DNA of 12,386 nt, from the NCBI GenBank assembly GCA_964016885.1, contig CAXHJY010000219.1, positions 1 to 12,386 on the forward strand, written 5' to 3'. The notes under the pieces were generated by a model. It was not told the DNA's origin and did no database searches. It saw only the letters and a program-made list of their open reading frames with translations. Positions within the stretch are counted from its first letter, which is position 1. Each line of letters begins with the position of its first letter. The DNA is from Eledone cirrhosa. Its lineage: Eukaryota. Below, one piece after another: positions 6,361 to 12,386 of this stretch. A program made the translations under genes and the position numbers.

Positions 6361-6611
6361 ATTATTTAACTGCTCTCCAGACTGGCGATCCAGCATAAAA
6401 TATAATGACAGGTCCATACACAAGAAATAATAAACACACACTCAAGAAACTTCATATCTTAATATTTATATACTCTGCCTGTGCGAGAGTGCTCTTGTAT
6501 ATATATATATATATATATATATATATATATATATATTAGGGTAAACATTGATGCAATTCAATTCACGCACTCAACGTACTTTTTCCACATAGGAGTGACG
6601 GAGTAAATATC

Positions 6612-6711
6612 GAATAAGGAAAAGGGAAGTAGTTTCAGATGTTCAAGTCCTTTAATAATAATTATTATTAAAGGACTTGAACATCTGAAACTACTTCGCT
6701 TTTCCTTATTC
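6612..6711. repeat. 100-bp spacerless palindrome (50-bp arms, 1 mismatch) in a (TA)n-flanked insert (about 6537-6711)
   Basis: 6612-6661 is the reverse complement of 6662-6711; centre TAATAATAA|TTATTATTA; the right end abuts (TA)n. Confidence 0.95.
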
Positions 6712-6849
6712 TATATATATATATATATATATATATATATATATATATATATATATATATATATATATATATATATATATATATATATATAAAATATAAA
6801 ATATAAATATTTACACATACACCAATTAAACAAAGTCACAGGTATATAT

Positions 6850-6918
6850 GTGTTTTGGCAACTTTTCACGATGTGGCTCAATGAAGAATTAATAAATTAG
6901 GTCATCAGAGCAAAATAC
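6850..6918 (-). ncRNA. Probable decayed type I hammerhead ribozyme
   Basis: On -: GTATTTTGCT-CTGATGA-...-GAAA-AGTT-GCCAAAACAC. Core boxes are in the right order and stem I is partial (about 7/10), but stems II and III are poor. Confidence 0.35.
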
Positions 6919-7170
6919 TATAGAGTAAAGCATGTCCAGAGAATTATTTGATAATATATATACATCATCTCTCCTCCCAATCAGCATAATTAATCACACA
7001 AAAAATCAATCAGTGGCATATTTATTTACTGTTTCTTCATAGATGCCTTTTATTCTTATAGCCTGGTCTCATTGATTTTTTGTGTGGTTAATTATGCTGA
7101 TTGGCAGTAGAGATGATGTATATATATATATTATCAAATAATTCTCTGGACATGCTTTACTCTATAGTAT
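6915..7170. repeat. Inverted repeat with about 96/100-bp arms and a 60-bp spacer, in a (TA)n-flanked insert (about 6792-7170)
   Basis: 6915-7010 versus 7071-7170: 3 substitutions and a 4-nt TA-length difference; the right end abuts (TA)n. Confidence 0.95.
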
Positions 7171-7216
7171 ATATATATATATATATATATATATATATAT
7201 ATATATATATATATAT

Positions 7217-7345
7217 ATAGGAACGAGTAGGACACCGACGGCTGAGCTCAAGCCGTTTAGACGGCTAATTCTGGACTCAGAATTAGTCCAGAATTAGCCG
7301 TCGAAACGGCTTGAGCTCAGCCGTCGGGGTCCTACTCGTTCCTAT
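7217..7345. repeat. Inverted repeat with 61-bp arms and a 7-bp spacer, in a (TA)n-flanked insert (about 7217-7422)
   Basis: 7217-7277 versus 7285-7345, 2 mismatches; the left end abuts (TA)n. Confidence 0.95.
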
Positions 7346-7538
7346 TACCCACTCTACTACCCTAACTATTGAGTACTTTGGTGCGTTATGGTCCATCTGG
7401 TTCCTTACCACATTTCCTTCGTTATATATATATATATATATATATATATATATATATATATATATACATTATGAAGAGAGAAGAAACATTTAGATATAAT
7501 TAGTAATAAAATGTATCATACCTAAACTGTTCCTAAAT

Positions 7539-7626
7539 TCCTCGACTACGTAGTTTCGTGGCATAAACAAAAACAATATATCAAAGATATAGAGTCCTTG
7601 CGAGGTCTGCCGACTTATCAAGAGGA
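7539..7626 (-). ncRNA. Type I hammerhead ribozyme (U3-A8 core variant), copy 1
   Basis: Reverse complement of 9024-9111. Confidence 0.8.
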
Positions 7627-8130
7627 TACCTCATTTTACTAGTCTCAAGAACGCGTCTACACGACGTGAGAAAGAATCCCAAAAGGCGGAGGGGGAGATA
7701 GTCACGCGATACAACGGTCGAGAAACAGAGCTAAGCCTCTTATAACCACGAAAAAAATACCACGGAGGCGGAGGGGGTATTCATATCGAGGCCGTAGAAG
7801 AGGTAGTGAAGAAGGCGAGAAGTATGAGTAATGGAAGCTTTCCAGTTGTCCCCACACTTCAAAGATTGCTCGACCAGAGGGAGTTATTAATACATTTAGA
7901 AACACACAGATACATGCGGACACACACATATATACATGAATGCATCCGCACCCAACTGTGAGTTAAGGGTGCCAACTTCACCGATGTTGCTCAATGAATG
8001 ACTGGGACAGACCAATTCAGTTTGAACCAGACTGAACCAGTATCAGAGTTAAAAAATACATTATGAAGAGAGAAGAAACATTTAGATATAATTAGTAATA
8101 AAATGTATCATACCTAAACTGTTCCTAAAT

Positions 8131-8218
8131 TCCTCGACTACGTAGTTTCGTGGCATAAACAAAAACAATATATCAAAGATATAGAGTCCTTGCGAGGTCT
8201 GCCGACTTATCAAGAGGA
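8131..8218 (-). ncRNA. Type I hammerhead ribozyme (U3-A8 core variant), copy 2
   Basis: Same as copy 1, +592 bp. Confidence 0.8.
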
Positions 8219-8720
8219 TACCTCATTTTACTAGTCTCAAGAACGCGTCTACACGACGTGAGAAAGAATCCCAAAAGGCGGAGGGGGAGATAGTCACGCG
8301 ATACAACGGTCGAGAAACAGAGCTAAGCCTCTTATAACCACGAAAAAAATACCACGGAGGCGGAGGGGGTATTCATATCGAGGCCGTAGAAGAGGTAGTG
8401 AAGAAGGCGAGAAGTATGAGTAATGGAAGCTTTCCAGTTGTCCCCACACTTCAAAGATTGCTCGACCAGAGGGAGTTATTAATACATTTAGAAACACACA
8501 GATACATGCGGACACACACATATATACATGAATGCATCCGCACCCAACTGTGAGTTAAGGGTGCCAACTTCACCGATTGCTCAATGAATGACTGGGACAG
8601 ACCAATTCAGTTTGAACCAGACTGAACCAGTATCAGAGTTAAAAAATACATTATGAAGAGAGAAGAAACATTTAGATATAATTAGTAATAAAATGTATCA
8701 TACCTAAACTGTTCCTAAAT

Positions 8721-9615: not shown

Positions 9616-9703
9616 TCCTCTTGATAAGTCGGCAGACCTCGCAAGGACTCTATATCTTTGATATATTGTTTTTGTTTATGCCACGAAACTACGTAGTCGA
9701 GGA
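9616..9703 (+). ncRNA. Type I hammerhead ribozyme (U3-A8 core variant), copy 5
   Basis: Same as copy 4, +592 bp; predicted cut after C9698. Confidence 0.82.
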
Positions 9704-9944
9704 ATTTAGGAACAGTTTAGGTATGATACATTTTATTACTAATTATATCTAAATGTTTCTTCTCTCTTCATAATGTATTTTTTAACTCTGATACTGGTTC
9801 AGTCTGGTTCAAACTGAATTGGTCTGTCCCAGTCATTCATTGAGCAACATCGGTGAAGTTGGCACCCTTAACTCACAGTTGGGTGCGGATGCATTCATGT
9901 ATATATGTGTGTGTCCGCATGTATCTGTGTGTTTCTAAATGTAT

Positions 9945-10034
9945 ATATATATATATATATATATATATATATATATATATATATATATATATATATATAT
10001 ATATATATATATATATATATATATATATATATAT
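9945..10034. repeat. Pure (TA)n tract separating inserts
   Basis: Directly visible; similar tracts at about 6498-6536, 6712-6791, 7169-7219, 7423-7466, 10400-10433 and 12090-12141. Confidence 0.97.
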
Positions 10035-10187
10035 GTAGATAAATCTACCAAGAGTTTACGGTAGTGTCCAATCCGTATGAAGAACTCAATGTATTCCGGA
10101 TATCATGGAAAGAAGAGATGTAATGAAAAATCACTTTCGGTGAAAGATAAACGGTATACAGAGTCAAGATAAAATATTAAACAAATA

Positions 10188-10337
10188 CATTATTTCTGAA
10201 GACGGCGTATATATGTGTTGGTATGTATATTTAATCTTGATAGTTTGTATAATTTTGTATAATTTTGTACATAGATCTGTTGAATATGCATGCCAATTCT
10301 AACACATATATATCCTAGAAACGATCGTTAATTAATG
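10188..10337 (+). ncRNA. Type I hammerhead ribozyme with long stem II, in a (TA)n-flanked insert (about 10035-10400)
   Basis: Stem I CATTATTT/AATTAATG (7/8); CTGAAGA (10196-10202); stem II TATATATGTGTTGG/CTAACACATATATA; GAAA (10318-10321); palindromic stem III CGATCG; GUU triplet. The base of stem II is mismatched, so it may be inactive. Confidence 0.7.
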
Positions 10338-10499
10338 AACTTTTTTTGTTTAATATAAGGAACTGTTTCATTGTTTTATTCATTATTTGTTTAATATTTT
10401 ATATATATATATATATATATATATATATATATAAAAGAGCTCTGTATTATACATAGAGGACTCTTTTTTCCTTTGCTTTTTCTTCGGAAATACTTAACA

Positions 10500-11745
10500 C
10501 ATACACACACATACACCCACATACGTACACACACACACACACACACACACACACACACACACACACACACACACACACACACACACACACATATATATAT
10601 ATACGTATATATATATATATATATATATATATATATATATATATATATATATATATATATATATATATATATATATATGTATGAATGTATACATACATAT
10701 ACACGTTCGCGTACATGTATATATACACATATGTGTATATATACTTAATTATATACACACTCACACGATGCATCTGTTTTCATACATTTTAAGTTTCTCA
10801 TCGCTTTTAGATATCCTAACTGATATATATATATATATATATATATATATATATATATATATATATATATATATATATATATATATACATACATATATAT
10901 ATATATATATATATATATATATATATGTATATGTGTATATGTGTATATGTATGCATATATATATATTATATATATATGTATATATATATATATATATATA
11001 TATATATATATATATATATATGTATATGTGTATATGTGTATATGTATGCATATATATATATTATATATATATATATATATATATATATATATATATATAT
11101 ATATATATATATATATATATATATATACACATATACACATATACATACATATATATATATATATATATATATATATATATATATATATATATATATATAT
11201 ATATATATATGTATATATATATATATATATATATATAATATATATATATGCATACATATACAGATATACACATATACATACATACATACATACATATATA
11301 TATATATATATATATATATATTATATATATATATATATATATATATATATATATATATATATATATATATATATATATATATATAGATATACATAGACAT
11401 ATATATATTATATATATATATATATATATATATATATATATATATATATATATATATAATATATATATATGCATACATATACACATATACACATATACAT
11501 ACATAGATACATATATATATATATATATATATATATATATATATATATATATATATATATATATATACATAGACATATATATATTATATATATATATATA
11601 TATATATATACATAGACATATATATATATTATATATATATATACATATATATATATATATATATATATATATATATATATATATATATATATATATATAT
11701 ATATACACATATATATATATATATATACATAGACATATATATACA
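10500..11745. repeat. Large compound (CA)n/(TA)n microsatellite with direct and inverted copies of variant blocks
   Basis: Directly visible; short unique spacer at about 10765-10822. Confidence 0.96.
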
Positions 11746-12183
11746 CCCACCAATTCTCCCTACCTATTTATTTGCATCTCTCGATCGTTTCTATTTTTGT
11801 TGTGAGAAGCCGTGAAACGTTTTGTCATTTCGGGGGATATATTTTATTTCGAATATAATTCAATTGAGCAACATATAAAGCGAAAACATGATTTCCTCTT
11901 GGAATATTTTTTTTACTCTCGAAACGTCGATGTAATATTAGAAGCGACATTCAATTTAAATGATCAAAAAATATTTGAAATATTCCAATGGTGATTTCGA
12001 TTTTGTTATATTTATTTCCAGCTCGGATTTAAACATAGTTTTAAAAGATAGTGTGCTGAGGGGGAAAAGATTTTACAATCGTCATCCGCTATATATATAT
12101 ATATTTATATATATATATATATATATATATATATATATATACAATATATTATCAAATGGAAACTATATTTATAAAACCGTATT

Positions 12184-12248
12184 TATTTCATTATACATAT
12201 TTCAAGGACATCAAAGCAAATTATGGTGCGCTTTCATCAGATAAAATA
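12184..12248 (-). ncRNA. Type I hammerhead ribozyme (canonical core)
   Basis: On -: TATTTTAT-CTGATGA-AAGCGCA...TGTCCTT-GAAA-TATGTA-TA-ATGAAATA. 8-bp stem I (one G-U), stem II AAG/CTT plus GCA/TGT, near-palindromic stem III, AUA triplet. Confidence 0.78.
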
Positions 12249-12385
12249 TAATATAGACTATAAATATAATATAGACTATCCGGGAGCTTCCAACCGACAT
12301 GGTCGCATTCTTTAAGGGTATGTCAATATTTATTTATAAAACTGATCTATATTATATTTTATCTGATGAAAGCACGCCATAATTT
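12218..12385. repeat. Inverted repeat with 40-bp arms (2 mismatches); the right arm holds the 5' half of the same hammerhead on + (CTGATGA 12363-12369)
   Basis: 12218-12257 versus 12346-12385; may be cut by the window end. Includes an 18-bp tandem duplication (12244-12261/12262-12279). Confidence 0.9.
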
Positions 12386-12386
12386 A

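Follow-up and report, generated by a model that had tools for sequence, protein, structure and literature searches.

Fixed paired ends and a shared bulged stem in (TA)n-bounded fold-back inserts of Eledone cirrhosa suggest two-site priming in Hydra-clade Penelope-like elements

The DNA analyzed here (the window) is a 12,386-nt stretch of Eledone cirrhosa that forms an entire small contig (12.4 kb; CAXHJY010000219.1) of a 3.0-Gb animal assembly (GCA_964016885.1), and between position 6537 and its end it carries six fold-back inserts. All six belong to dispersed families that end in (TA)n. They are best explained as 5'-truncated or mini insertions of Hydra-clade Penelope-like elements (PLEs), accompanied by non-coding, retrozyme-like families with the same cis signal, in which each insertion would be primed at two fixed sites of a template RNA, each site being marked by a copy of one bulged stem. 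We assign this explanation as a whole a probability of about 0.7; the identity of the inserts as Hydra-clade PLEs and as non-coding families sharing their cis signal is very probable, and the two-stem priming mechanism is favored with more reserve. The observed part comprises the family structure, the pairing of one short with one long end, the stem and its covariation, the TA targets, the variable centers, and the link of two inserts to Hydra open reading frames (ORFs).

The inserts are termed I1 (6537-6711), I2 (6792-7167), I3 (7220-7422), I4 (7467-9941), I5 (10035-10400), and I6 (12142 to the window end). An earlier note on this DNA had placed six mutually dissimilar inserts beside TA tracts; the placement is confirmed, and pure TA tracts bound each insert (target tracts at 6498-6536, 6712-6791, 7168-7219, 7423-7466, 9942-10034, 10400-10433, and 12106-12141). 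The dissimilarity holds in BLAST, where the sole mutual match is 30 nt between I2 and I4 (E 0.005), but the inserts are not unrelated: the same bulged stem occurs in the tails of I1-I5 within the window, and in the tail of I6 in other copies. Searches of the animal's own genome gave 25 candidates for I1, 995 for I2, 3385 for I3, 683 for I4, 209 for I5, and 1695 for I6; these are candidates rather than copy numbers, and the best 25-40 were scored for each insert. I4, I2, and I1 are tandem repeats that bear hammerheads, their periods being 591, 681-688, and 1307-1317 nt, respectively; no ORF was seen in them. I3 is a mini-element of ~205 bp. The inverted duplication measures 50 bp in I1 (98% identity), ~100 bp in I2 (92%), 61 bp in I3 (97%), 941-960 bp in I4 (99.6-99.8%), and 17-19 bp in I5 (100%); that of I6 is cut by the contig end.

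The 3' ends of these families are highly constrained. Each family has two fixed sites, a short one (S) and a long one (L), with L lying 76-166 nt beyond S, and 262 of the 291 ends examined coincide with one or the other. These ends run into TA in 246 of the 262 cases, compared with 11.7% TA-tract bases in 14 control regions; for I5, all 36 S and L ends do so, as do the ends of its autonomous partner. Pairing was counted in 88 head-to-head copies, leaving out 24 I3 copies for which the query held both ends (all S+L). One S end is combined with one L end in 76 of the 88 (I1 4, I2 11, I3 17, I4 6, I5 14, and I6 24; four are the window's own copies), neither SS nor LL occurs, and 12 have one unclassified end, one of these being a mis-bounded duplicate of the I5 copy in the window. 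Ten head-to-head pairs were also fetched for the autonomous partner of I5 (described below): six are clean S+L, two consist of S and a probable L at which the alignment ran on into TA, and two are incomplete.

The centers at which the arms meet differ from copy to copy, being mostly overlaps of 0-6 nt or inserts of no more than 18 nt. When I3 is set aside, 59 pairs remain; the S arm extends further 5' in 27 of them and the L arm in 14, the arms are equal in 8, and 10 were not called. Almost all center junctions (108/109) unite arms of one family, and both arms of I6 belong to one subfamily in 21 of 23 copies, against ~13 expected from allele frequencies; the two mixed copies are the I6 of the window and that of locus L048. 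The remaining junction, in locus L350 (~1100-1250, in element sense), joins a 42-nt I3 long arm head-to-head to an I6/Hydra arm through a 1-nt overlap without TA.

S and L are each followed by TA, 4-7 bases, and a stem of the form RCTC-Y...R-TN-GAGY, the ends lying 6-9 nt before the stem; the stem encloses 5-104 nt and is usually followed by RCT. A strict version of this pattern matches nine of the ten known S/L sites (the exception is the short site of I1, where the reference copy reads GA for TA); within an autonomous stretch of 7.2 kb, its matches are the two S/L places alone. Because the pattern is post hoc, it was checked out of sample. The fetched loci supplied 638 non-simple TA-bounded segments, including 90 fold-backs of I1-I6 and 73 of other families, and 62 of the latter have a tail of at least 25 nt and form 31 clusters. 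The stem stands at the start of the tail in 15 of the 31 clusters, as opposed to 0.7 expected from shuffles and 0/31 on the reverse-complement control, with an outer pair of A-T in nine, G-C in five, and A-C in one. One reverse-strand stem control was uninformative, as the motif pattern is its own reverse complement.

A second set came from metagenomes, in which 76 loci of Hydra-like ORFs form 63 clusters, 37 of them with at least 200 nt upstream. In the last 220 nt before the ORF, 35 of these 37 have at least one stem and 24 at least two (shuffled: 7.3 and 0.5). When letters were left free in anchored stems, the inner pair was C-G in 36, T-A in 16, T-G in 2, and T-T in 1, and the bulge was TT in 41, TA in 7, TC in 6, and CT in 1; an R-Y count from the same set was discarded, being confounded by the ACTC that trails each stem. 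Of 27 metagenome loci with two pseudo-long terminal repeat (pseudo-LTR) copies, 14 stop at a contig or slice edge, 2 are tandem, and 11 end within the contig, 6 of these 11 stopping 0-4 nt before a stem. In the supplement of PMC8557442, the curated Hydra consensus sequences inspected by eye carry either a pair of stems ahead of the start codon (Hydra-1_Ajap) or a single one in the terminal tail. For I6, the prediction made beforehand was a further stem beyond the long end: a pattern search found seven copies that continue past L, and a control pattern found none. Ordinary I6 copies have only TA past L; all five read-through copies that were fetched continue into a decayed Hydra ORF, four with an intact stem and one with a changed base.

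From their sequence context, I5 and I6 are pseudo-LTRs of Hydra-clade PLEs. I5 corresponds to the segment just before the start codon in ~6.9-kb tandem arrays (96-99% identity), its right arm is 94% identical to the pseudo-LTR of the autonomous Hydra-clade unit in locus L232, and at one locus an I5 copy is joined head-to-head to a truncated ORF. The intact partner ORF is a single frame of 813 amino acids, in which a reverse transcriptase (RT) precedes a C-terminal GIY-YIG-type nuclease. As read from motifs and 119 homologs, it has YRDD and a VYKC..YIG nuclease region; it also has N-terminal RWR and SDKT, a CNCRNKANC linker (CxCX5C), and CRLC..E..LLN..CNH, and lacks CCHH. A Pfam search with the C-terminal 360 amino acids gave no match. 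Among the homologs, RW[KR] is found in 70, DK[TS] in 111, and DKG in 1. The diagnostics given for the Hydra clade in the sections of PMC8557442 considered here are RWK, a change of DKG to DKT, a CxCX5C linker, no CCHH, and CxxC/CxH around a conserved E/N, and nearly all families of the clade are reported there to target (TA)n. It is by these motifs that we assign the I5 partner to the Hydra clade; a Neptune-clade label was dropped because the linker is CxCX5C, accompanied by DKT, rather than CX2-5CxxC with CCHH. A Hydra-clade family from an octopus is already listed in published work.

The C-terminal part of the partner ORF yielded 73,001 candidates in the genome, and the best 150 that were scored are all at least 98% identical. 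The 3' untranslated region (UTR) of the partner is 3993 nt long (L232 reversed, 1023-5017) and consists to 45% of TA/TG runs, with 25 pure TA tracts; the autonomous element may thus spread its own target sequence. I6 is the pseudo-LTR of a second, decayed Hydra family, with an ORF 41-43% identical to that of the first. For two more Hydra families, identity over the N-terminal 200 amino acids is 43-54%, both with the first family and between the two, and their pseudo-LTRs match two other fold-back clusters. The genome therefore holds at least four Hydra families, 41-54% mutually identical where compared. I1-I4 are tied to Hydra PLEs by the shared stem and by the one I3/I6 hybrid. A Pfam GIY-YIG search gave other PLEs with classic GIY-YIG domains and not the partner; those at L192 and L195, with a Pfam-type domain, stand head-to-head in TA-rich DNA, and in eight copies of such other GIY-YIG PLEs in this genome no stem was present after the stop codon.

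Hammerheads were called with a structural descriptor, which passes five motifs within I4 (core TTGATAA) and a single one within I6. The I4 core represents a U3-A8 swap of the C3-G8 pair, a variant that can be active. I5 has the core, stem I, and a palindromic stem III, with an atypical stem II junction, and its motif fails the descriptor because stem II does not close on the core. Of the three hammerheads and one decayed hammerhead that had been noticed previously, those of I4 and I6 were thus called, and that of I5 stands as a motif; the decayed one, CTGATGA in I2 (6908-6902, minus strand), was rejected: it shares bases with the tail stem, and a single one of 13 copies of that tail has it. 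The true hammerhead of the I2 family, which the descriptor calls, lies ~305 nt upstream of the short end, outside the window copy, and that of the I1 family, likewise outside the window copy, was seen by eye only. No hammerhead family appeared among the 150 Rfam matches considered of 155, in which microRNA-type chance matches fell below gathering scores.

Divergence from the center, first noticed for the ribozyme-sense strands of some of the inserts, is seen for the sense strands of all six. The check for hammerhead enrichment and orientation that the earlier note had proposed gave a positive outcome: a hammerhead is called in 11 of 62 other TA-bounded fold-backs, compared with 3 of 620 shuffles, and 10 of these 11 are divergent. 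Nearly all I5 mini copies (L132-L155) have their start where hammerhead stem I has its 5' base and carry an additional A that is missing from the autonomous unit, and the 5' limits of I3 and I6 minis are likewise near-fixed; such limits may mark an RNA start or a reverse-transcription stop.

In the mechanism that we propose, the template RNA would contain start sites at S and L, separated by 76-166 nt, and each would consist of UA, 4-7 nt, and the bulged stem RCUC-Y..R-UN-GAGY-RCU. The GIY-YIG-type nuclease of the element would break a (TA)n tract; S would receive one of the two DNA ends and L the other, with annealing through TA microhomology and positioning by a protein subunit attached to the respective stem. 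Extension of both would proceed toward the 5' end of the RNA, which would usually come from a single source, and the 3' ends of the complementary DNA (cDNA) would be joined centrally via short microhomology or a small templated insert. The product would be a head-to-head copy with a one-sided tail and TA on both sides. Since the L stem is not part of the completed copy, its action must be in the template. The best fit is a single RNA that is copied twice, with strand displacement, and occasionally a second RNA; given the I3/I6 hybrid junction and the two mixed-subfamily I6 copies among 23, two templates can evidently be used. We infer, with the moderate confidence that we place in the two-stem mechanism itself, that the stem acts as RNA, that protein binds it, that a dimer is involved, that events follow this order, and that I1-I4 are mobilized by Hydra proteins. 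Slightly better than even, in our judgment, are the odds of the broader proposal that Hydra-clade PLEs undergo obligately paired, two-ended target-primed reverse transcription, in which a clade-conserved duplicated stem docks a telomerase-related RT dimer with the ends at S and L.

Each insertion of this kind would leave two new TA targets, so that arrays would grow serially. Serial insertion into TA tracts, which the earlier note had suggested, is supported by TA on both sides of the inserts and by arm divergence that ranges from 92% identity to nearly 100%; such unequal values fit insertions at different times. Its picture of a hotspot survives as an array of inserts, and the effect is modest, given that another such element directly adjoins 38 of the 210 TA-bounded ends examined elsewhere (in a limited library). 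Five inserts in a row are uncommon yet expected somewhere because there are so many copies in the genome. Integration of several families by the same machinery, a further suggestion, is borne out for a common TA-targeted, hammerhead-linked kind, but at the level of the clade only, in view of the four or more Hydra families and the preponderance of one-family junctions. Its idea that this process may help to account for how rich in TA the region is receives indirect support from the long, microsatellite-rich 3' UTR of the I5 partner.

Several observations weigh against the two-stem explanation. The genome searches scored the best 25-150 candidates, so the samples lean to young, query-like copies, and single-arm copies ending at S or L are common. 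The arms mostly share family and subfamily, and the mechanism therefore needs one RNA copied twice or a strong cis preference. No ORF is joined to I1-I4 in the fetched loci, within 1.5 kb on either side. The strict stem pattern was built from the window's own families, so that only the out-of-sample counts are tests of it, and among the out-of-sample clusters 16 of 31 are without a stem under the rule, a few of these having near variants. A stemless family of TA-bounded fold-backs with a ~60-nt tail has ten members (L042:453-943 and nine related segments) and is possibly another PLE clade with its own signal. With a stricter anchored pattern, the 37 metagenome clusters divide into 20 with two stems, 15 with one, and 2 with none; 5 of the 11 metagenome ends inside contigs are not at a called stem (one lies before a variant stem, four elsewhere). 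The covariation counts sequences rather than independent changes, and the stems at S and L may go back to a single ancient duplication. A second stem after L was not found for I3, where a search with a fixed 6-nt gap gave one chance match, and in one abundant Hydra family (L335-L346) the region upstream of the ORF holds a complete stem at S, whereas the stem at L is degenerate. The outer pair is A-C in both I4 stems, and predicted pairing is low (0.1-0.4) for several stems.

Among the other explanations, the one that survives best is that the stems act at a DNA or nuclease step, the second arm arising by repair or second-strand synthesis and being cut and joined to the target at S or L by way of a nuclease that recognizes the stem in cDNA. 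The Drosophila Penelope nuclease required tail sequence to recognize plasmid DNA (as recounted in a section of PMC11167929), the tail has been ascribed to nuclease-mediated resolution (in a passage of PMC8557442), and covarying pairs would equally suit hairpins of single-stranded DNA. We nevertheless consider this route unlikely: the L stem lies beyond the L end and is missing from the finished copy, so it could act in the template only; the S arm holds sequence missing from the L arm in 27 of 41 unequal pairs; and hybrid arms require two templates.

A lesser chance attaches to the occasional copying of ready-made fold-backs, mainly for I3, I5, and I6 minis, whereby a read-through transcript would be reverse-transcribed in one priming event via its (UA)n ends. 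In its favor, I3 has near-equal arms in 36 of 41 pairs, some recurring centers, and no L stem seen after it (fixed-gap search), and several I6 copies have one junction in common. I3 also has many different center forms, however, the central spacer of I6 derives from the S arm in 15 copies and from the L arm in 9, and junctions are scattered in I4, I5, and the autonomous copies. Self-priming, in which one cDNA (or an antisense template, as proposed in part of PMC3846280) folds back and copies itself, has that published proposal, the palindromic centers of I1 and I3, and the usual single subfamily of the arms in its favor. It is very improbable all the same, and contradicted for most families here: an L arm that snaps back cannot yield a further-5' S arm (27 cases, among them I5 of the window) or a pair of arms with hardly any overlap (L149, L152), an S arm that does so cannot provide the tail, and mixed and hybrid arms occur.

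The inserts might also be TA-targeting MITEs (miniature inverted-repeat transposable elements) or fold-back DNA transposons resembling the SaTar arrays of plants, for non-nested microsatellite arrays of unrelated small elements are described, in the sections considered of PMC5907723, for non-autonomous Mu-like elements, and I3 is almost fixed in size. This is scarcely credible, since the S and L termini differ and are not inverted repeats of each other, centers vary, tandem multimers, single arms, and hammerheads occur, and for I5 and I6 it is refuted by their continuation into RT ORFs; the fixed, symmetric termini of MITEs are thus absent, and any target-site duplication would be indistinguishable within (TA)n. 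An assembly or library artifact (fold-back chimeric reads) in a small unplaced contig is suggested by the window being a whole 12.4-kb contig with a flank (11745-12085) that lacks a second copy, and by I4 arms that are 99.6-99.8% identical, but can practically be set aside, as other arms are diverged (I2 92%, I3 97%), many large contigs show this asymmetric design as well, and ends that match are present in contigs from metagenomes.

Much of what is described here has precedents, as inverted 5'-truncated copies, a tail at one end, (TA)n bias, hammerheads with a palindromic stem III, and PLE-derived non-autonomous hammerhead repeats are all published. The duplicated stem and the strict S+L rule were not found in the openly accessible literature covered. 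In L1 twin priming, two primers on one retroelement RNA lead to an inversion. In the UnaL2/SINE system (short interspersed element), a 3' stem-loop common to the autonomous element and its parasite is the cis signal (PMC1636434, as excerpted). In the present elements, by contrast, the arms usually overlap and both start sites are fixed, and the stem, which occurs in two copies, is located 3' of its start site.

Hydra-clade families described in the consulted part of PMC8557442 are mostly <3 kb with tails of 30-40 nt, whereas the unit here is ~6.9 kb, with a microsatellite-rich 3' UTR of 4 kb and tails of 76-166 nt; that part of the text has neither an end stem nor a strict S+L rule, although the supplementary consensus sequences contain the stem. 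For Poseidon PAc of Anolis, in vitro work describes a pair of internal start sites by which the tail is defined, with cleavage and extension on each strand (PMC11167929, in the sections considered). The likeness to the present elements extends to two sites bracketing the tail, both strands being cut and extended, an AT-rich target, and a predicted dimer; PAc differs in belonging to another clade and in having its start sites within one AC-rich stem-loop inside the ORF, and the same sections show no duplicated positioning element and no pairing of site to DNA end (PMC11167929). I4, I2, and I1 resemble the animal non-LTR retrozymes, which are tandem non-coding units with one type I hammerhead each and have been proposed to be non-autonomous PLE derivatives (PMC7229834; bioRxiv 10.64898/2026.07.22.740005, both in the parts consulted). 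Retrozyme units are given there as 150-450 bp, whereas those here are larger (I4 591, I2 ~685, and I1 ~1310 nt), insert as head-to-head arrays, and have S/L ends and a candidate cis signal. The SaTar arrays of guayule and rice are similar in being non-nested arrays of unrelated small elements formed via microsatellite targeting, but are described as Mu-like DNA transposons (PMC5907723, sections considered), and the elements here are retroelements.

The origin of inverted PLE copies and of their one-sided tail is named as an open question in PMC8557442, and the sole in vitro PLE system leaves later steps unvalidated (PMC11167929; both in the sections considered). The strict S+L rule and the covarying duplicated stem turn the question of how PLE ends are formed into a direct mutagenesis experiment, for which an intact and very young protein of 813 amino acids (best 150 scored matches at least 98%) is available. 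They also provide annotators with a signature by which many MITE-like, TA-flanked palindromes could be reassigned to PLEs, and animal retrozymes with a candidate cis signal. If the broader proposal is correct, it would provide a cis code for PLE mobilization that accounts for the inverted pseudo-LTR and the one-sided tail, and unrelated hammerhead repeats would become parasites by retaining this stem signal alone.

Within the window, I1 is a head-to-head stub of a ~1.31-kb tandem family, with a left arm (minus strand) that ends at L in a 76-nt tail and a right arm that ends at S; its S stem (ACTCC..G-TT-GAGT) lies at 6569-6604 on the minus strand, and the single I1 array checked has no frame above 110 amino acids. 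I2 is a similar stub of the ~685-nt family, with a left arm ending at L (tail ~118 nt), a right arm ending at S, a center near 7013, and an S stem at 6876-6911 (minus; GCTCT..A-TT-GAGC) that includes the rejected CTGATGA. The mini fold-back I3 has its left arm ending at S, its right arm ending at L (80-nt tail), a 7-nt center that varies between copies, and an S stem at 7351-7374 (plus; ACTCT..A-TT-GAGT); judged by eye only, its segment 7303-7335 looks like a hammerhead 3' half.

The left arm of I4 (7467-8847, minus) holds 2.3 copies of the 591-nt monomer, with hammerheads at 7539-7626, 8131-8218, and 8721-8808, and its 3' end is at S. The right arm (8838-9941, plus) holds 1.9 monomers, with hammerheads at 9024-9111 and 9616-9703, and its 3' end is at L, 166 nt past S; the arms meet in a short overlap at 8838-8847. 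S stems of the monomer are located at 9193-9253 and 9785-9845 (plus) and at 8579-8639 and 7989-8049 (minus), and L stems at 9358-9374 (plus) and at 8460-8476 and 7868-7884 (minus), all with the A-C outer pair. In I5, the left arm (10035-10187, minus) comprises an L end with a 138-nt tail, containing the S stem (10084-10164), and just 17-19 nt upstream of S, whereas the right arm (10188-10400, plus) runs from the hammerhead-like motif (10188-10337) through to the S end. In I6 (12142-12386), the left arm (minus) has a hammerhead at 12184-12248 and ends at S, and the right arm, of a different subfamily, is cut by the contig end. A tail piece of a further TA-bounded family (10434-10500, minus) adjoins I5, is absent from the list in the earlier note, and has 79-85% matches at other loci, including L187. 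The flank at 11745-12085 is single-copy in the assembly, which therefore offers no empty allele.

The I4 monomer (9353-9941) is found in 20 public runs from 16 studies with 17 organism codes, at least half of its words being present in 10 of them. Three contig sets are 90-99%+ alike to it at low depth, two having a tandem or circular joint; raw Hi-C reads of one such organism (~1% read) gave a simple-repeat match only. No RNA dataset is listed for the monomer, which has no bearing on expression, and no S or L ends occur in the read and contig sets of other samples compared. Its occurrence under these organism codes may be due to closely related species, to contamination between samples by an abundant RNA, or to horizontal transfer.

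Just left of the first TA tract, the segment 6363-6497 contains a stem-like match (6463-6490) and is perhaps a seventh insert; it has no relative among the fetched loci. A SINE-like repeat at 3405-4049, which may resemble an octopus SINE, comprises 2.7 tandem copies of 237 bp, with another copy at ~6160-6360. A long degenerate (ACC)n array occupies 4717-5535, and a short run of telomere-like TTAGAG repeats is located at 1045-1120.

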